Shown piece by piece: positions 2,042 through 35,023 of a stretch of DNA of 36,076 nucleotides (within the stretch, counting starts at the first letter, position 1; each line of letters begins with the position of its first letter). The notes beneath the pieces were generated by a model, which was given only the letters and a program-made list of their open reading frames with translations, had not been told where the DNA came from and ran no database searches. The position numbers and the translations under genes were made by a program. The DNA is from a virus (lineage: Duplodnaviria > Caudoviricetes): positions 1-36,076 of IMG/VR virus record IMGVR_UViG_3300049191_000029. One strand, written 5' to 3'.

Positions 2042-2070
2042 AATCCCCGCCACAAGCGGGGATTTATTTT
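2042..2070 (+). terminator. Rho-independent terminator
   Basis: AATCCCCGC-cacaa-GCGGGGATT 9-bp stem followed by TATTTT. Confidence 0.8.
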
Positions 2071-2139: not shown

Positions 2140-2502
2140 ATGCAAGCCTTCGATAAAAATCAGCTGAAACCCGGCGAGCGCTACGTGGGAGCGATTATCG
2201 ATCAAGATGGAGCCAACGGCGAGCACATCATCTTGTTGCCCGGTGAAGCGGAATCCGTTAACTGGGAAGACGCAAAAGAATGGGCCGCGACCATCGGCGG
2301 CGAATTACCCAATCGTATTGAATCGACGTTGCTGTTTGCGCGTATGAAAGATGAATTTAAGGCTGATTGGTACTGGACGTGCGAGCAGTACGGGTCCGGC
2401 AGCGCGTGGATGCAGTACTTCGGCAGTGGCTACCAGGGCTACGACGACCGTGGCTACTCCTGCCGGGCGCGCGCCGTCCGCAGGTTCGTTCTTCCCGAAT
2501 AA
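2140..2502 (+). CDS. DGR target protein 1, DUF1566/Lcl-C-like C-type lectin fold, 120 aa
   Basis: Start moved to ATG 2140 (AAGGAG RBS; the track start at 2014 crosses a terminator and promoter); W..A..WA...GGELP.R.E, WYWT and terminal RARAVRR; contains VR1. Confidence 0.88.
   Translation: MQAFDKNQLKPGERYVGAIIDQDGANGEHIILLPGEAESVNWEDAKEWAATIGGELPNRIESTLLFARMKDEFKADWYWTCEQYGSGSAWMQYFGSGYQGYDDRGYSCRARAVRRFVLPE
2385..2482 (+). repeat. DGR variable repeat VR1
   Basis: 98 bp, ungapped against TR; 17 mismatches, all at TR adenines (14 A>G, 3 A>T). Confidence 0.97.
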
Positions 2503-2520
2503 AACAGAAAGCTAATCACC

Positions 2521-2964
2521 ATGACCATTACTCTCGATACCCTCAAGGCCGAACAAGAGCGCTTGGCAGCCTTGATCGCAAAATTCGAAGCGCAGCCAGC
2601 CTATCCGGTTGAAATCGCCTTTCCCGAGCTGAAATCGGGCGAACGTTACGTAGGCGCGATCATCAGCCCTGATGGCGCGAAGCGCGAACACATCATTCTG
2701 CTGCCTGGCGAAGCGGAATCCGTCAACTGGAAAGAGGCGCAAGCTTGGGCTGAATCGGCTGGTGGGGAGTTGCCGGATCGTTGCGAATCGGCGCTCCTGT
2801 TCGCCACGATGAAGGACGAGTTCAAAGAAGCCTGGTATTGGACTGGAGAGCAGTGCGGGTCCAACAACGCGTGGGTGCAGCTCTTCAGCCTTGGCGACCA
2901 GTACTACTACAACCGTAGCGGCTCCTACCGGGCGCGCGCCGTCCGCAGGTTGAAAATTTCGTAA
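2521..2964 (+). CDS. DGR target protein 2, DUF1566/Lcl-C-like, 147 aa, with N-terminal helical extension
   Basis: Paralogue of target 1 (56/75 identical residues over the shared core by hand count); contains VR2. Confidence 0.9.
   Translation: MTITLDTLKAEQERLAALIAKFEAQPAYPVEIAFPELKSGERYVGAIISPDGAKREHIILLPGEAESVNWKEAQAWAESAGGELPDRCESALLFATMKDEFKEAWYWTGEQCGSNNAWVQLFSLGDQYYYNRSGSYRARAVRRLKIS
2850..2947 (+). repeat. DGR variable repeat VR2
   Basis: 98 bp, ungapped against TR; 14 mismatches, all at TR adenines (8 A>G, 4 A>T, 2 A>C). Confidence 0.97.
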
Positions 2965-3029
2965 TATCGCTTTAAATCGGCATGGTTTCGTCCGCACCCG
3001 CGCAGCTGTATCGCGCGGTCTTAACCTGG

Positions 3030-3158
3030 TCGTGCCGCTGGCCTACATGGCCACCGCCATGCGCACAAACGGAAACCCCTGGCTCTAAGCCAACAGGTCC
3101 GGCGCAGTCTCCGCGTTGATCGGCGCACGCCTTCGACGCAGCGACGTAGATAGCACGA
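3030..3158 (+). ncRNA. Candidate structured RNA immediately 5' of TR
   Basis: Nested complementary segments: TCGTGC 3030-35/GCACGA 3153-58; TGGCC 3039-43/GGCCA 3049-53; TGCGC 3060-64/GCGCA 3102-06; CGGA 3070-73/TCCG 3098-101; TGGCT 3080-84/AGCCA 3088-92; GCGTTGA 3113-19/TCGACGC 3133-39. Confidence 0.5.
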
Positions 3159-3164
3159 ATCGGC

Positions 3165-3262
3165 GCAGTACGGGTCCAACAACGCATGGATGCAGAACTT
3201 CAACAATGGCAACCAGAACTACAACAACCGTAACAACTCCTACCGGGCGCGCGCCGTCCGCA
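3165..3262 (+). repeat. DGR template repeat (TR)
   Basis: 31 adenines; 11 AAC/AAT codons in the target frame; ends with a 14-nt G/C run (3243-3256); the target frame is closed upstream by TAG at 3151. Confidence 0.97.
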
Positions 3263-4387
3263 TATCAAGACGCGGGCCGCCATGCCGATTTTTCTTTTAA
3301 TGAGCTGGAACAAGCATATCAATCCTGCCGCAAGCACAAGGGCGCAAAGCCCGCTGCCAAGGCGTTCGCCGAGAACGCACAGCAAAACTTACTGGCCCTC
3401 TACGGTGAGCTGAAAGACGGCTTCTATCGTCCAGGCTCTTCTATATGTTTCATCGTCACGCGGCCAAAGCCCCGTGAGATTTGGGCCGCTGACTTCCGCG
3501 ACCGAATCGTCCAGCACTTGCTCTACAACCACATCGCGCCGCGCTTCTACGCTTCGTTCATTGCCGACAGCTGTGCGTGCATTCCGGGGCGCGGCACGCT
3601 GTACGCCACCAGGCGCCTTGAATCCAAAGTTCGCAGCATCACGCGCAACTGGTCGGCGCCGGCTTGGTATTTGAAATGCGATCTCGCAAACTTCTTTGTC
3701 AGCATCGACAAGACAGTTCTCTGGAAGCTGATCGAAGCGCGAGTTACCGAACCCTGGTGGCGGGAACTGGCGCACACGATTCTGTTCCACGATCCACGAC
3801 AAGACTTCGAACTGCGCGGCTCGGCAGCGTTACGCGAACTGGTGCCGCCCCACAAGCGGCTGCTGGAGCAAGATGTGGGCCTTGGTCTGCCAATCGGCAA
3901 TCTCACATCGCAGTTCTTCGCCAATGTCTATTTGGACGTGCTCGACCAGTTCGTAAAGCACAGCCTCAAGGCGCGACATTACGTGCGCTACGTCGATGAT
4001 TTCGTTATCCTGCACGAATCGCCGCAGTGGTTGAATGCAGCCCTGCGCGAGATTACCAAGTTCCTGCCGCGCGCCCTAAATGCGCGGCTGAACCCTACCA
4101 AGACGATCCTGCAGCCCATAGCGCACGGCGTGGATTTCGTCGGCCATGTGATCAAGCCCTGGAATACCAAAGTGCGCCGCAGGACGTTGCGCCAGGCGGT
4201 GAGCCGTTTGCTGACACTGGATGACGTCGATGTGTTCGCGTCGGCCAACAGCTATTTCGGCCTGGTGCGTCAAGCATCCTGCGGCCACAAAGACCGCACC
4301 CGGCTGGCATGGGCAGTTCTTAAACGTGGCTACGCCGTTAACGGTGCACTGACCAAAGCCTACAAGAGAAAGGAGCAACAGCAATGA
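3206..4387 (+). CDS. DGR reverse transcriptase (start uncertain: ATG 3206 inside TR, or TTG 3116)
   Basis: KPREIWAADFRDRIVQH, LKCDLANFF, GLPIGNLTSQFFAN, YVRYVDDF, GVDFVG. Confidence 0.95.
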   Translation: MATRTTTTVTTPTGRAPSAYQDAGRHADFSFNELEQAYQSCRKHKGAKPAAKAFAENAQQNLLALYGELKDGFYRPGSSICFIVTRPKPREIWAADFRDRIVQHLLYNHIAPRFYASFIADSCACIPGRGTLYATRRLESKVRSITRNWSAPAWYLKCDLANFFVSIDKTVLWKLIEARVTEPWWRELAHTILFHDPRQDFELRGSAALRELVPPHKRLLEQDVGLGLPIGNLTSQFFANVYLDVLDQFVKHSLKARHYVRYVDDFVILHESPQWLNAALREITKFLPRALNARLNPTKTILQPIAHGVDFVGHVIKPWNTKVRRRTLRQAVSRLLTLDDVDVFASANSYFGLVRQASCGHKDRTRLAWAVLKRGYAVNGALTKAYKRKEQQQ

Positions 4388-9081: not shown

Positions 9082-11277
9082 TCAGGGCGTAAGTAGCCCA
9101 GCCTCGCGCCGACGCCGTTGCTCTTCTGTTTCCGTCCCAAGCAGCGCCGCTGGAGTGAGAGCCGTCGGCCGCCGTGCCGCTGGCAACCGGGGTACGTTCA
9201 TCAGGAGCGCACCCGGTGCGTTCAGCGCGGCACCGGATTGCTGGCTCACCACGATGTTTTGCAACGGGCCTTCCAGCGCCGGACCAATCAACGGAATCTT
9301 GCCCAACAGCGGAGCGGTGCTAATGCGTTCCAGCAGCCCCATAGCGGCGCCGGCCGTGTTCGAGTTGTTGACCGCACTGCCCACCGGCTGCACTTGCTCG
9401 TAGCTGGCTACCCGGCCCAACGCTTTCAAGCGTGCGACTTCGTCCGGCTGGAAGAACAAGCCAAGCTTGCGCTCGCCAATGGCATTCAACGCCTTGTTGT
9501 AAGCAGACTGGCTGAACCGTGCCACCTCATCCGCCGCACCGCCGGTAGCCTTCTCCTTGAGGTGCGCCGTGATCTGATCCTTGATTGCCACAAGAGCTTC
9601 GTCGTTGCCTTTCAGCACACGGGCCAGCTGCTCTACGTCGCGCACATTGGCCTTGTTGCTGGCACCGACAATGAACTGTTGGACGAATTTATCGGGCGCC
9701 ATGCCATCGCGCACCGCTTGCAACGCAGGGGTCTTCTCTACGGTCTGCATCCAAGCGCGGTTCAGCGCGCGGGCTTGGTTGAAGGCTTCCACCGACTGTT
9801 GTCCAATTTCTTGCCCCTGTTGGAGCGGCGTATCGTCAAGCGCGGAACGCACCAGGCCGAGGGCTTTGCGCTCCGCCATGTCGGTTGTGGCGCGCTGCAG
9901 TTCGCCTAGGCGCGTTTTGAACTGTTCAGCGACGTCCACAGTAAGCGGCATTTCGCCGGTCGCGGCGCGGTTGAGCAGGTTGCGCACGTCGCCCGGCAGT
10001 TTGCCCCCCAGCAGCGCGTCGTCTAGCAGATCGTTGGCGCGCCGGGTGAACGCGGAAGGGTCCAGCATAGCCGCGCGGCCCGAGGTATCACGCGCCGCGT
10101 TATACGCCTGCCCGATTGCTTTCTTGGCGATATCGTTGCGGCTTTCCAGTGCCGACATGATGCGCTCGCCGCCGGCCAAAATGTCATCGGCGCCAGTCGC
10201 CCCCAACTCGTTTAGGTTGCGCACCAGGGCTTGGTTGTTGGTGTTCTGTGTCTGTGCCAGCTGCTGCGCCGCCGGGTCGCGCAAGTTGGCGCCGGCCTTG
10301 GCCAGGTTGGCTTGCCGGGTGACCTCGCCGGGGTCGAGCGACAGCCGCGCGCGAGTCGGCGTCAGACCGGTGAACCGGTAATCCGCCAGGCGGCGCAGGG
10401 CGTCGGGCGACAGCTTCTCGCCCATCTGGAAGGCTTGGGCGACGTCCTGGCGCAGCGACGCGGCAATGTCGGCGGGCAAGTCCGCTAGCTGCATGCCATC
10501 GCCGCGCAATGCGTTGTTGATGGTGATATCGATGCGTTGCGGCGGCACCGTGCGCGGTGTCATCGCTTGGCGAGCGGCGGATGCTGCGCGCTGGCTAGCG
10601 GCCACACCGAACGGCGCGGCGATGCCCGCGCCCAGCGAGGCAATCATCTGCGCACCTGGGCCGCCGCCGGTCTCGCGGGTGTATCCGCCGGCTCCACCGG
10701 CCGCCGCCGCGCTGGCCATCTGCGTGCCGGGGCTGGCCGCTAGCTGCTGCAACACCCCGCGCCCCGCAGTCTGTGCGGCAACTGGTGTACGCGCCAACGC
10801 ACCGGCGGCGCCAGCAAACGGCAGTGCGCCGCCAGCCAGCAGCCGGGTGGCGTCTCCCACTACGCGTTCGCCAGCGGTCTGCGGCTTCGGCAGCCCCAGC
10901 AGATTGGCTAACACCTCCCCGCTACGGCCCTCGATCTGCTGGCGCGGCGCGGCCCCGGTGACCAGGTCGGCTTGGGTCGGCGCTTTGTTCGGTAGAATGG
11001 CGTTCAGACCGGCGCGGATGGGCGAAGTCACAAAATCCAGCACATCGCCGACGCCTTCGGCGCCGTAGCGCGCGGTAAGGCCCACTTGGCGCGGCAGGTC
11101 GCGGATGGCGGTATCGAGTTGCTTACCGAAGCCTGGTGCAGGGGCTTCGATCTTCGGCGCGGGCTGCGCTTTCACCTGGGCTGCGATCATTGCTTGTGCC
11201 TGCTCCGGCGTCGTCCCTTCTGGTACTTCGAAGCGACCAATGCGGCCATCAGGCATCTGGAAACGGGCGATAGGCAT
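9082..11277 (-). CDS. Probable DNA ejection/internal virion protein (large)
   Basis: Ala/Gly/Gln-rich helical protein with a hydrophobic Gly-Ala stretch; last of three large ORFs after the tail genes, as in P22-like phages. Confidence 0.65.
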   Translation of the reverse strand: MPIARFQMPDGRIGRFEVPEGTTPEQAQAMIAAQVKAQPAPKIEAPAPGFGKQLDTAIRDLPRQVGLTARYGAEGVGDVLDFVTSPIRAGLNAILPNKAPTQADLVTGAAPRQQIEGRSGEVLANLLGLPKPQTAGERVVGDATRLLAGGALPFAGAAGALARTPVAAQTAGRGVLQQLAASPGTQMASAAAAGGAGGYTRETGGGPGAQMIASLGAGIAAPFGVAASQRAASAARQAMTPRTVPPQRIDITINNALRGDGMQLADLPADIAASLRQDVAQAFQMGEKLSPDALRRLADYRFTGLTPTRARLSLDPGEVTRQANLAKAGANLRDPAAQQLAQTQNTNNQALVRNLNELGATGADDILAGGERIMSALESRNDIAKKAIGQAYNAARDTSGRAAMLDPSAFTRRANDLLDDALLGGKLPGDVRNLLNRAATGEMPLTVDVAEQFKTRLGELQRATTDMAERKALGLVRSALDDTPLQQGQEIGQQSVEAFNQARALNRAWMQTVEKTPALQAVRDGMAPDKFVQQFIVGASNKANVRDVEQLARVLKGNDEALVAIKDQITAHLKEKATGGAADEVARFSQSAYNKALNAIGERKLGLFFQPDEVARLKALGRVASYEQVQPVGSAVNNSNTAGAAMGLLERISTAPLLGKIPLIGPALEGPLQNIVVSQQSGAALNAPGALLMNVPRLPAARRPTALTPAALLGTETEEQRRRREAGLLTP

Positions 11278-19049: not shown

Positions 19050-20246
19050 TTAGTTGGACAGGATGCGAGCGGCCAGCTGGGCGCGCAAGGTCTTGTAGCC
19101 GTACAGGACGTCGATACGAGCCGGGAACTGGTCGTTGGCGATGGTGTACTGTCGGATCATGCGCATGCTGATACCTTCGAAGGTTTCGCGGGCTTTCCAG
19201 TCCACGCCGTCAGGCATGATCAGGTCGGCAGTGGCGAAAGCGAAGGCGTCCTTGTGGAAGGCCAGGGAAGGCTTGTACACCGCCGACGCGCCGCCCACTT
19301 TGACGATTGCCGCACCGTTCGGCATACCGCCGGCGGTGACGTTCTGGCGACCGGTGGTGGTGTAGATGGCTGGTGCGAAGTTCAGCGTGCCCGCGCCGCC
19401 GGCATAATCCGCCGTGACGACGAACTGTTGCAGTACACCAGTGTCGACTTTGGTTTCCGGGTGCACGCGGTTGCAACCGGCCACGGTGAACACGTCGCCC
19501 TTCTTGAAGGTCGTTGCGCCAGCGGCCACCACAACAGAGGTCGAGCCGTTGGTGGTCACCGCGCCGTTAACGGTGTAGCCGGTTGCCGAAACAGCAGTGC
19601 CCGTGGTCTGCGACGCCAACAGGGTGTTTTCGTAGATATCGCCGAAGCCCGCAGTGCGGCCAACCATACCGGTGCGGTATTGTTTGGCGATCTCACCCGA
19701 ATCCTGGAACAGGCCTTTCAGCGCGTCCACCAGGTCGAGATTGTCCTGGGTGTTCAACAGCAACGTGCGGTCGTCGGTCGGCGACAAAGCATCGGTCAGC
19801 AGCTTACGGCCCTGCAGCGCCGCACGCATGGTCATCGGGTTGCCAAGGTTATTGACGGCTTGGTAGACGTCCAACGCCATCGACAGGGCGTCGGCTTCGA
19901 TGTTCGCAGCCAGCACGCTCACCGCCGGAGCGATAATGCGCTTGCTGAAGTCGTCCAGGCTCAGGGTCAGGTCGACAGCGGTAAAGCTCAAATCGACGCC
20001 CTTCTGAGTCGCGACTTGCAGGGTTACGGACTGCTCGACGGTGTCCTGGGCCGCCATAGTGGCACCGTTACGAACCACGTACTCGTTCGGCAGACGGATG
20101 CGCAGCGAATCGCCGATCTTGGCGCCGGTCTTGGCGAAGGAATCGTCGTACTGGCGGTTGATCGAACCGATGAAGTTCAGTTTTTGGTGCAGGATGCGCA
20201 GCGCTTCGCGCGTGATCATCTGCGGTGTCAGCAAGGTATTTGGCAT
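19050..20246 (-). CDS. Major capsid protein (P22 coat protein family)
   Basis: NTLLT..MITREAL..L, KIGDSLRIRLP, RIDVLYG; follows the scaffold gene. Confidence 0.9.
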   Translation of the reverse strand: MPNTLLTPQMITREALRILHQKLNFIGSINRQYDDSFAKTGAKIGDSLRIRLPNEYVVRNGATMAAQDTVEQSVTLQVATQKGVDLSFTAVDLTLSLDDFSKRIIAPAVSVLAANIEADALSMALDVYQAVNNLGNPMTMRAALQGRKLLTDALSPTDDRTLLLNTQDNLDLVDALKGLFQDSGEIAKQYRTGMVGRTAGFGDIYENTLLASQTTGTAVSATGYTVNGAVTTNGSTSVVVAAGATTFKKGDVFTVAGCNRVHPETKVDTGVLQQFVVTADYAGGAGTLNFAPAIYTTTGRQNVTAGGMPNGAAIVKVGGASAVYKPSLAFHKDAFAFATADLIMPDGVDWKARETFEGISMRMIRQYTIANDQFPARIDVLYGYKTLRAQLAARILSN

Positions 20247-30315: not shown

Positions 30316-30417
30316 TTGTACAAGCGCCCCTATTATGCGCCTTGATCTTGTACAAGGCAACGTGGCTTTCCAAAATGAACGTTTTGACATTTCAATCGCG
30401 CGCACCTACGCTACAAT
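30316..30417. promoter_or_regulatory. Divergent promoter/operator region
   Basis: Minus strand: TTGCCT (30360-55)-17-CATAAT (30337-32), with TTGTACAA at 30316 and 30348. Plus strand: TTGACA (30384)-17-TACGCT. Confidence 0.7.
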
Positions 30418-30785: not shown

Positions 30786-30851
30786 GTTGTTGACACAAGT
30801 CACGACTTGTATAAAAATGAAGGCTCCAAACACAAACAGGGAGTCTTCAGC

Positions 30852-31415
30852 ATGGAAATCAAAGTACACATCAGCCGTCAGCTGGTAGGCGGCTATGTCA
30901 ATTACGAGGCGTCTTGCGCCGGCTCGAAAGAGGCGCTGCAGCTCACCAGCGACTTGCTGGGCGGCCTGACCGGCCAAGCGGCAGTACCTACCGGCGTAAT
31001 CCTGGGCGCCGGCGCGCAGCTGGCCAGCGCTGCTCCTACCGAAACGCCGCCAGAACCACAGGTCGAGAAGCAGAAACCGACCACCGCAAAAGACGCGATC
31101 AACCAGGCTCTGGAAGCGGCGCGGAAGGACAAGGACGCAAAAAAAGTCGAAAAGGAAGCCGCCGAGGCCAAGGAAAAAGAAACTACCAGCGCCAGCGAGC
31201 AAGTTGGAGCCGGTTCCTCTGAAGCTGATGTCGAAGAAGGCGACGCCGTCGACTATGAAGCCGTTAAAAAAGCCGTTCTGACCTTGAACAAGCAAAAGGG
31301 CCGCGAGGTGGCGCTGCAGCTGCTGGGCGAGTTCGGCGTGACCACCGCCCCGGCGCTCAAGTCCGAGCAGTACGCTTCTGTCGTGTCCAAAGCCAACGCC
31401 ATTCTGGCGGCTTGA
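30852..31415 (+). CDS. Hypothetical protein typical of DUF2800/DUF2815 modules
   Basis: Low-complexity linker plus a small C-terminal helical domain (LLGEFGV..APAL..EQY). Confidence 0.75.
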
Positions 31416-31417
31416 TC

Positions 31418-32830
31418 ATGGCGGAGCACGCTACCCTCTCTCCTTCCGGCGCGCACCGCTGGATGGCCTGCGCCGGCTCGCTTGCCCTTGAGGCCGGCGT
31501 GCCAGACAAGAGCAGTGAGTTCGCCGAAGAAGGCACGCTCGCGCACGCCCTGGCCGCCGAGTGCTTGCAACAGGAATTCGACGCCCTCTACTTCGTCGAC
31601 CGTGAGTTCTTCTATGCGGACCACGGCGCAGCGAAGTCGGCCACCATCAGCAAGGACATGGCCGAGTACGTTCAGCAGTACGTCGAGAAGATTCGCCAGT
31701 ATGCCGCCGCCGGCGAACTGCTGGTCGAACAGCGGTTGGAATTCTCGCAGTTCATCGGCGTGCCTGAGCAATTCGGCACCAGCGACGCGGTGATCCTACT
31801 GGACGACGAGCTGCAGGTGCACGACTTGAAATATGGTCGCGGCGTGAAGGTCGATGCCGACAACAACGAGCAGCTGATGTTGTATGCGCTGGGCGCTTAC
31901 GCCGAATATTCCGCCATGGGCGACTTCAAGCGCATCCGCATGGTGATCCACCAGCCGCGCCTGTCGCATCTGTCTGAATGGGATTGCACGGTCGATGAGC
32001 TGATGGCGTTCGCTGAACGTGCCAAGGTCGCGGCGCAAAAGGCAATCGCCATCCTGCGCTCGGATCGCGCTGAGGTTGATCTGGCCGCCGCGCTCACCCC
32101 CGGCGACGCGCAGTGCAAGTTCTGCAAAGCGAAAGGCCCGCGCTGCCCGGCGTTGACCGAGAAGGTACTGGCGACCGTGGCCAGCGACTTCGAGAAAATC
32201 GAGGACCAGCCGATCATTGAAGGCCTGAAGAAAGGCGAAGTTGCGGTCAGCATCGCTGACGCCGAAAAGGTCGTCGCGGCTGCCTATGGCGTGACAGCTA
32301 AAGCCGTAGATTTTGTCGACAATACGCATGAGGGCGGTGAGCAAACCTACTTCTGTGTGAAAAAACCTACTCTACGCCCTGCACTGGACGGCGCCGAGCA
32401 GCGCGTAGCTAGCGCCAGCGATGAGAACTTGGCCCTCTGCATGGAAGCGGTTGATCTGGTCGAAGGCTGGTGTAAGGCTGTTCGGGCCGAAGTTGAGCGC
32501 CGCTTGTTGGCCGGGGGTACCGTACCCGGTTTCAAGCTGGTGCAAGGACGTGCTGGCGCGCGTGCCTGGATCGACGAGGCCCAGGCCGAAGCGCTGCTCA
32601 AGGGCTTCCGGTTGAAGCGCGAAGAAATGTACGACCTGAAACTGATTAGCCCGACCAGTGCCGAGAAGGTGCTGGCCGATTCGCCAAAGCGCTGGACCAA
32701 GGCGAAAGAGCTGATCACCAGCAGCGAAGGCCGCCCATCCGTGGCACCGGCAGCCGACAAACGCCCTGCACTGGAAATGAAACCGGTCGCGGACGAGTTC
32801 AACGACGAGACCGGCGAAGACTTGGTCTAA
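31418..32830 (+). CDS. DUF2800 Cas4-like PD-(D/E)xK nuclease
   Basis: [40 protein letters not shown].....C. Confidence 0.9.
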
Positions 32831-34142: not shown

Positions 34143-34185
34143 GAAGACGCCCGCCGGTTCCTTCGGCGCCAGGCCGTGCTGGTCG

Positions 34186-34521
34186 ATGCGGCGCCGGCTG
34201 TTCGCCTACGGACGCGACGCGCTGCCGCCGTCCTTCGCCTCGTCCAACTGGATCGTGGCCCGCATCCGCGCCATCGTGCCGTGGGCCGACTTCAAGGCGA
34301 TCCGCGCGGTATACGCCGAGGCCGACCGCATGACTATCGTAACGGGCGTCAAGCACCACGTGGATCACGTTATCCCACTGAACCACCCACGGGTGTGCGG
34401 ACTGCACGTGGCGGCGAACATGCGCGTTATCCCGGCCGGCCCGAACATGAGCAAGGGCAACGACTGGAATCCCGATCAACTGGAGCTGTTCACACAGCCC
34501 GAACAACTAAGGTTGATATGA
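34186..34521 (+). CDS. HNH endonuclease (start uncertain)
   Basis: HVDHVIPL...CGLHV..N.......N..KGN. Confidence 0.8.
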   Translation: MRRRLFAYGRDALPPSFASSNWIVARIRAIVPWADFKAIRAVYAEADRMTIVTGVKHHVDHVIPLNHPRVCGLHVAANMRVIPAGPNMSKGNDWNPDQLELFTQPEQLRLI

Positions 34522-35023
34522 CGAAAGTTTTAGACCCCTGTTGCGGCAGCCGCATGATGTGGTTCGATAAGCGCGACTCGCGCGCGCGGTGTTCGGCGAT
34601 AGGCGCAGCGAAACGATCACGGTCACCGACCGGACCCACCGCCAGGACGGCACCCGCACGTTGCGGATTGAGCCGGATACTGTCATGGACTTTCGCGCTC
34701 TGCCTTTCGCGGATTCGACCTTTAAATTGGTCGCGTTTGACCCACCGCACCTCGAACGCGCCGGGCCTAAAAGCTGGCTTGCTGCGAAGTACGGGAAGCT
34801 TTCTGAGGATTGGCGGGCCGACCTACGCGCCGGGTTTGCTGAATGCTTTCGCGTGCTGGAGGATGGCGGCGTGCTGGTCTTCAAATGGAATGAAACCCAG
34901 GTGAAATTGCCCCAGGTGCTGGCGTTGACGCCGCATGCCCCGCTATTCGGGCAAGTGTCAGGGCGCGCAGGCATGACGCACTGGCTTGTGTTTATGAAAG
35001 ACGATTTTTCGGACCTCGTATGA
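34518..35023 (+). pseudogene. SAM-dependent (amino-type DNA) methyltransferase interrupted by a 2-nt frameshift
   Basis: MTKVLDPCCGSRMMWFDK in one frame and VFGDRR...FDPPH...GGVLVFKW in another; the break lies in (CG)5 at 34579-34588. Confidence 0.8.

Follow-up and report, generated by a model that had tools for sequence, protein, structure and literature searches.

Among described diversity-generating retroelements (DGRs), that of phage BPP-1 is arranged mtd-avd-TR-Sp-brt, where TR is the template repeat, Sp the spacer RNA and brt the gene of the reverse transcriptase (RT), bRT. In the available text of Handa et al. (10.1101/2023.10.23.563531), the spacer is described as a stem-loop bound by Avd, followed by the primer strand, a G that is required, a stop strand pairing with sequence upstream of TR, and additional stems; the survey reported there covered the 100 nt downstream of TR. 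From genomes, Wu et al. 2018 (PMC5758913, as far as its accessible sections go) proposed homing that does not depend on Avd, and in the accessible part of the prior literature such homing was inferred only from the absence of the gene. Here we describe a DGR at positions 2140-4387 of IMG/VR record IMGVR_UViG_3300049191_000029, a soil phage. The window analysed is the entire record (36,076 nt). We propose, with a probability of roughly 55%, that this DGR has lost avd and retrohomes without Avd. What is new here is an Avd-less active state with matched RNA and protein changes, together with a permuted spacer. Loss of Avd with continued activity is the unusual part, and was, like the RT-15 RNA described below, absent from the original prediction made on this DNA.

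The DGR is almost certainly genuine and recently active. All its parts are on the plus strand. The TR (3165-3262; 98 nt with 31 A and 11 AAY codons) aligns without gaps to two variable repeats, VR1 (2385-2482) and VR2 (2850-2947), that lie in two tandem target genes. As first noticed from the sequence, all 17 mismatches of VR1 and all 14 of VR2 face adenines of TR; given 31 A per 98 nt, the chance of such A-only mismatches is 6e-11 and 8e-9, respectively. No further TR-like site was found on either strand of the window. The next best site agrees at only 38/67 non-A positions and therefore the tail genes carry no VR, which bears out the earlier statement that the tail fibre has no TR match. The 11 AAY codons allow 15^11 = 8.6e12 variants, close to the predicted 9e12, and no A substitution makes a stop; the whole TR permits 1.1e17 protein variants. 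Downstream, both VRs continue with CAGGTT and TR with CATATC, which would correspond to the difference between IMH and IMH* (initiation of mutagenic homing).

The RT gene (3206-4387) matches PHROG 1423 (5e-116) and Pfam RVT_1 (5e-16), and its best match in the PDB is bRT of BPP-1 (8UB7, E 2e-41). Both motifs claimed for it, GNLTSQ and YVDD, are present. Its frame is open from 3089, with possible starts at TTG 3116, ATG 3206 (inside TR) and CTG 3305. The part of the frame from 3089 to 3305 thus runs through TR and part of the upstream RT-15 RNA, as in many relatives, where the open frames of full-length RT matches measure 401-540 aa. The RT reads as intact and conserved; compared with that of its relative L007, dN (nonsynonymous) is 0.21 and dS (synonymous) 1.56. 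The locus thus displays A-only differences between TR and VR, an RT with catalytic motifs next to TR, a VR at the C-terminus of a C-type lectin domain, and change of a VR with a fixed TR. It has no avd gene, no spacer RNA downstream of TR and no GC-rich hairpin after the VRs, three features of the BPP-1 type. Downstream of the VRs, folding energies are -1.4 and -1.6 kcal/mol, a level that shuffled sequences also reach, and the same holds for L007.

The site that avd (about 350 nt) occupies in relatives is empty here (2965-2997). TR lies 315 nt from the last VR, versus 637-707 nt in 77 of the 80 loci scored, and the open reading frame (ORF) found between the last target and TR in relatives is Pfam bAvd in 7/7 cases tested. 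Searches of the complete window genome with Pfam bAvd, 23S_rRNA_IVP and a profile built from 72 Avds of the clade found no Avd, and no avd remnant is detectable in the window at the protein or DNA level. For the count, 123 loci with an RT at least 55% identical over 300 aa were retained (114 distinct, from 165 loci plus the window), two of them truncated. The gene avd is present in 119/121 evaluable loci and absent in two, the window and L007; a family search found no Avd elsewhere in the L007 genome. Further, partly overlapping sets gave avd in 17/18 loci (one truncated), 3/3 cultured phages and 19/19 loci. Close avd-bearing relatives have RTs 70% identical to that of the window. Between the window and L007 genomes, the replication module is syntenic (44-64% identity), and almost no structural genes are common to both.

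More avd-less loci were sought in several ways. A DNA pattern for the short gap returned 2 viral and 78 metagenome matches, among which L007 was the only DGR, and a pattern for the N-terminal peptide returned 30 viral matches, once more with L007 alone. A protein search limited to the region gave no match. Two candidates, L052 and L312, were rejected since their avd sits behind insertions. L312 (G519:C1:1843666-1847751) has a gene of about 1.1 kb between TR and RT, its RT starts at its own ATG, and it retains avd and the RT-15 hairpin.

Public runs X1-X7 are all 2025 soil metagenomes and may belong to one campaign; X1-X3 may be the source of the window. Contigs of X1, X2, X3 and X4 cross the avd-less spacer unchanged, and an assembly artefact was rejected as the cause of the missing gene. 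Over 2,601 nt, a contig of X1 matches the window exactly. A single other VR1 allele is carried by X2, X3, X4, X5 and X6, and X7 has no depth at VR1 positions. Comparison of 20,000 nt of the X2 contig with the window shows 16 differences, of which 15 fall on TR-A sites of VR1; the other is at 10818. This is the A-restricted variation that the original prediction expected of an active element. In allele 2, nine changes lead to the TR letter and six give letters found in neither TR nor VR2, so that recombination of VR1 with TR or VR2 was rejected as its source. At the protein level this gives 10 substitutions and no stop; one change is silent. Between the window and the X2 genome there is no difference in the avd-less spacer, TR, VR2 or RT, and TR is identical in the main contigs of X1, X2, X3 and X4. 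Because the avd-less spacer is shared exactly by both genomes, at least one mutagenic event followed the loss of avd. Six non-A letters are common to both VR1 alleles (2398, 2431, 2437, 2443, 2446 and 2455), and in two cases the letter is a T of an aromatic codon; the shared letters could reflect selection or partial replacement.

These data also bear on the idea of a decaying element whose two alleles are both older than the loss of avd. Decayed cassettes that keep their targets do exist: at L002:5600-7080, two intact targets are followed by an HNH-like gene and only the last codons of an RT. Moreover, over 183 columns of the RT core the window has 14 deviations (L007, 7; avd-bearing RTs, mean 7.7 and maximum 24). 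The single base in 20,000 that differs outside VR1, the exactly shared spacer and the absence of a detectable avd remnant largely refute this idea, which we regard as very improbable.

The structured RNA of the cassette is an Rfam RT-15 RNA (RF03018; 2998-3165), a predicted DGR spacer that scores 136.3 bits against a gathering threshold of 82 (E 2e-33). Between 1800 and 4500 it is the only Rfam match over threshold; it lies upstream of TR, and none was found downstream. RT-15 was found in 6/6 relatives tested and is full-length in avd-bearing loci. In L312 the insertion of about 1.1 kb begins about 35 nt after TR, which fits the lack of a downstream spacer. In the window, a predicted primer strand with the following G (3017-3026) is complementary to the 3' end of TR and to those of both VRs. 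In an alignment of 30 rows, this helix has 9 pairs with 85% of cells paired (slid controls, 26-43%) and 5/9 pairs changed on both sides; 0/500 shuffles are as high for paired cells and covariation score. Among 67 distinct pairs of RT-15 and TR end, from which 11 loci without a motif were left out, position 7 is TA in 29, GC in 15, CG in 9 and AT in 4, and positions 6-9 have 169 Watson-Crick pairs versus 114 +/- 6 in 5,000 shuffles. Such shuffle tests are inflated by relatedness among the sequences, and we give more weight to the pair types than to the number of pairs. For the strand that follows the G, every cell (100%) is paired with the stretch immediately before TR. The two avd-less loci have AACCTG as linker and CAGGTT at the VR ends, where AATCTG and CAGATT are found elsewhere, a compensatory change. 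The primer helix is not formed in the single minimum-free-energy fold of 2990-3290.

We therefore take RT-15 to be, very probably, an upstream primer RNA, priming itself being what we infer from these pairings. We found no description in the literature of pairing between RT-15 and the end of TR. In its main text, as far as available, Weinberg et al. 2017 (PMC5737381) assign only RT-10 to a DGR and speculate on others.

In both avd-less loci, the RNA and the RT are altered together. The apical hairpin of the first RT-15 stem is gone in the window, where 33 model positions are replaced by 9 nt, and is shortened in L007. Its loop word is kept in 91/93 avd-bearing sequences and its tetraloop fold in 76 (7 loci skipped). 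On the protein side, among 22 conserved columns of the N-terminal extension of RT, the window deviates at 7 and L007 at 5, whereas avd-bearing RTs deviate at 0.7 on average (maximum 8). The RT core, by comparison, departs from the consensus to a usual extent in both. Both avd-less RTs carry R46G and E55A. G46 and A55 occur in 0/110 avd-bearing RTs, which have R46 in 110/110 and E55 in 99%. Likewise, no close member of 150 library representatives combines G46 with A55 (R46 in 121, E55 in 132). R46 aligns with R30 of bRT, beside K29 on the loop braced by Avd. K45, the match of K29, is retained.

These changes help to weigh the possibility that the element is non-autonomous and takes Avd, or a complete RT-Avd complex, from a resident prophage with an RT-15 DGR, so that retrohoming would occur only in such lysogens. 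Avd is essential in BPP-1, and avd, TR and brt act in trans according to the accessible part of Wu et al. 2018. Candidate helpers exist: in sampled genomes of possible hosts, prophages bearing Avd were found in 16/401 of the family and in 8/119 and 10/84 of two genera, so that this RT clade is present in 4 to 12%, accompanied by avd in every case that allowed a check. The few VR1 alleles seen would also agree with borrowing. A borrower should nevertheless retain the Avd-binding hairpin and the RT surface, and both are altered in both avd-less loci. The phage RT, intact and conserved, would moreover be needless if a helper complex did the work. We consider borrowing rather unlikely. It is also conceivable, if improbable, that another phage or host protein has taken over the role of Avd. 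Several small ORFs of the window belong to no family, and R46G and E55A, common to both avd-less RTs, might reflect a surface for a new partner. A comparison of 39 window ORFs with 40,000 of the 40,844 nt of genome G001 argues against it, since no small DGR-adjacent ORF is common to both. Matches were limited to 12 ORFs: those for replication, the targets and the RT, part of ORF 30807-31415, and one with weak similarity to a tail fibre.

Several observations weigh against Avd-independent homing. In the parts of the BPP-1 literature at hand, Avd is required for catalysis (Handa et al.) and the system reconstituted in E. coli loses activity without avd; the Bacteroides DGRs tested, in the text available, have Avd in all five cases. 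The Avd-bearing prophages of possible hosts, just mentioned, point the same way. Several searches yielded no more than two avd-less loci. Their TR-end duplex is weaker, with 7/10 pairs and a mismatch where 64/67 loci pair. At the position of E55, bRT has Lys and not Glu. The 5' arm of the hairpin lies inside the last codons of avd, and therefore loss of the hairpin could be a by-product of the avd deletion. Covering contigs show only two VR1 alleles and no VR2 variant, although contigs drop rare alleles. Finally, the RTs of the window and L007 are sisters with a support of 97 when the N-terminal extension is included, and this grouping is lost without it, though a single clade is not rejected (approximately unbiased test, p-AU 0.43). 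On these trees, one loss of avd and two convergent losses are both possible.

Retrohoming without Avd could proceed as follows. One transcript would contain RT-15, then TR. RT-15 has the elements of the BPP-1 spacer in unchanged sequence (tetraloop hairpin, primer strand, G, and a stop strand that pairs with the stretch right before TR) but is placed before TR. The primer strand would pair with the 3' end of TR and prime error-prone cDNA, probably from a 2'-OH. Being complementary to the 3' ends of both VRs, it may also help the RNA-cDNA to find either target. The first RT-15 hairpin, which is gone here, is the positional match of the Avd-binding stem-loop, and the N-terminal extension of RT, which contacts Avd in bRT, is altered at two near-invariant residues. 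The variable proteins would most likely sample binders for a host protein in early infection. A fuller proposal, doubtful as a whole, is a minimal DGR made of the RT and an RNA of about 270 nt with the spacer circularly permuted upstream. It would have shed the Avd pentamer, the hairpin and the RT contacts together (possibly twice, by convergence), while hypermutation of two lectin domains expressed together would continue; these domains may form a two-chain binder of host proteins inside the cell.

The two targets have the predicted lengths of 120 and 147 aa. Target 1 (2140-2502) is a stand-alone DUF1566/Lcl_C C-type lectin domain (Pfam Lcl_C 6e-4, below the curated cut-off). Target 2 (2521-2964) consists of an N-terminal helix (residues 5-23) and a C-type lectin domain. 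The two proteins are 67% identical (P0086). With peak 19-residue hydropathies of 0.54 and 0.82, neither has a hydrophobic segment, in agreement with the claim that they lack a transmembrane helix. The AlphaFold model of target 2 (mean predicted local distance difference test score, pLDDT, 95) best matches the Lcl C-terminal domain in the PDB (8Q4E, E 5e-6) and then C-type lectins, as expected from the proposed fold. Target 2 has 404 homologues, and homologues are named DUF1566. Overlap of the VR with DUF1566 (Lcl_C) is indicated by the sub-cut-off Pfam matches, the names of the homologues and the structure match, and TR-A codons fall on residues 111-136 and 143 of the 147 of target 2. A protein 72% identical to target 2 was found on a 2,412-nt contig (P0001) and may mark a third close relative; a scan based on it gave two weak 38-residue matches.

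In a complex prediction, targets 1 and 2 scored 0.35 versus 0.02 for the best control, with at least 44% of contacts agreeing between runs and a partner pLDDT of at least 81. The mark applied to this score is reached by 116/157 solved complexes and 2/215 mismatched pairs; of those that reach it, 18 solved complexes and both mismatches lie at or below 0.60. Because the chains are paralogues, we do not claim that they bind each other, a possibility to which the model lends weak support.

From their position and domain content, the targets in all likelihood act outside the virion. They are likely made early and, as far as gene position and the lack of export signals indicate, likely act inside the infected cell. 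The early-arm, non-tail position of the proposed intracellular binders was recovered; no result here points to defence proteins or rival phages, the ligands suggested at first. A host protein is our guess, held at slightly less than even odds. We found no functional studies of small DUF1566-type targets in literature listings. An alternative that appears unlikely is that the targets, although encoded in the early arm, influence adsorption as decoration or minor virion proteins. Among solved structures, the closest folds are those of ligand-binding surface proteins (Lcl C-terminal domain, Bdellovibrio Bd2740, intimin). Roux et al. 2021 (PMC8144416), in the text available, allow that such targets could be unrecognised structural proteins, which speaks against our interpretation, and the announcement of Magia (PMC7883833), a myophage, notes short DGR targets and suggests a role in host range. 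In the window, the targets are on the strand opposite to all structural genes and have no fibre or anchor domain. The same cassette is found amid recombination and integrase genes in phages of the myo-, sipho- and podo-type.

Diversification of small lectin proteins instead of the tail fibre is real, as the original prediction had it, but it is not unusual, being common in the clade and published. The viral RT scan considered the best 80 of about 640 matching stretches, and most of these loci have at least two VRs. The 135 distinct targets have a median length of 194 aa and a maximum of 277; 15 contain a mildly hydrophobic stretch (>1.6) and 0/135 a lipobox. Among flanking ORFs, 106 of 142 from 25 loci were scanned. 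None of them (0/106) has a head or tail family as best match, and recombination, nuclease, methylase and integrase functions dominate, with two weak holin matches and one late activator. On this evidence, members of this RT clade as a rule have small tandem DUF1566/C-type lectin targets encoded in the early arm. The arrangement is not new (Wu et al. 2018, Roux et al. 2021, phage Magia). In their accessible sections, Wu et al. report that about half of the category 'd' (CLec2, DUF1566) targets are short DUF1566-only proteins and that 15% of DGRs have several targets, and Roux et al. describe two viral target clusters as non-structural or unknown, with PC_00009 tied to proteobacterial prophages.

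The record's own completeness rating is 72%. The phage genome is nonetheless complete and circular, because public assemblies of 36,074 and 36,047 nt cover it, a joint from 20000 to 1 with 16,044 letters between gives a circle of 36,044 bp, and the DNA polymerase gene runs over both window ends. The DGR lies on the plus strand between the DNA polymerase and the endonuclease and helicase genes, and the structural genes are all on the minus strand. The nearest named RTs are from Burkholderiales genomes. Portal and coat are P22-like. Of the products of 19050-20246 and 31412-32830, the coat protein has its nearest matches in Pseudomonas phage PAE2 and spring podoviruses, and the exonuclease in the BPP-1 group and APSE. 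No tyrosine integrase was found in the window genome, and PADLOC matched none of 10 window proteins. The polymerase (2-1150) has a short CxxC-CxxC insert near residues 250-281, and a DNA methyltransferase match at 34176-35023 is divided over two reading frames.

Directly upstream of the DGR, 1269-2033 contains a von Willebrand A (vWA) domain gene, without match in G001, and a 43-aa membrane ORF. A GC-rich hairpin followed by a T-rich run (2042-2064, plus strand; -10.9 kcal/mol, z -5.05, 0/200 shuffles equally stable) likely serves as a terminator dividing the DGR unit from the vWA gene. Next comes a promoter-like element on the plus strand (2082-2109), read from the sequence as TTGTAC-16 nt-TATAGT with a TG extended -10. 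The sigma70-like promoter originally proposed is thus present as a motif, but only 8/12 letters match the consensus and a sigma70 scan at threshold 9 gave 0 sites, this element being below threshold. Another copy at 1155-1207 precedes the vWA gene and the membrane ORF. The palindrome TTGTACAA overlaps the element. It has 8 copies in the window versus 0.24 expected (1165, 2082, 6675, 8989, 26163, 27830, 30316 and 30348) and is likely an operator because two copies bracket the start of a helix-turn-helix gene near 30335; the copy at 2082 is a candidate operator.

A pair of RTs 70% identical, with and without Avd, pinpoints an RNA hairpin and residues, in a case where the avd-less copy demonstrably mutated its target after the loss. 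The mapping of RT-15 gives a testable role to an orphan Rfam motif present in many betaproteobacterial and Pseudomonas phage DGRs. If true, a DGR of RT and one RNA alone would simplify tools for targeted mutagenesis.

Compared with known systems, the window resembles the BPP-1 DGR in its A-only mismatches, its C-terminal VR in a C-type lectin fold, its homologous RT and its RNA, predicted to prime in cis, whose elements follow one another as in BPP-1; its exonuclease is also nearest to BPP-1-group phages. Unlike BPP-1, it has no avd, its structured RNA is upstream of TR (RT-15) and not downstream (RT-10), it has two small stand-alone targets in the replication arm instead of a tail-tip protein, and no stable hairpin follows the VRs. 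With respect to the Rfam model of RT-15, in which the linker is unpaired, the window linker pairs with the TR end and the apical hairpin is missing. Burkholderia phages Magia and vB_E192a and Shewanella phage vB_Sb_QDWS, like the window, have small lectin-fold targets arranged in tandem (identity to target 2, 45-46%) in an early recombination region, with an RT 61% identical to that of the window. In contrast to the window, all three have avd and a canonical RT N-terminus, and Magia and QDWS have an integrase nearby. As far as the available texts go, category 'd' of Wu et al. also has short DUF1566-only targets, several per DGR, and PC_00009 in clade 3 of Roux et al. is similar by description; neither avd loss inside this clade nor an upstream primer RNA was found in those portions. 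By gene arrangement, target-TR-RT without an accessory gene, the window resembles the avd-less DGRs of Wu et al. (architecture A, Lineage 3, in the sections accessible). It differs from them in that its RT nests among avd-bearing relatives and that a mutagenic event subsequent to the loss was seen.

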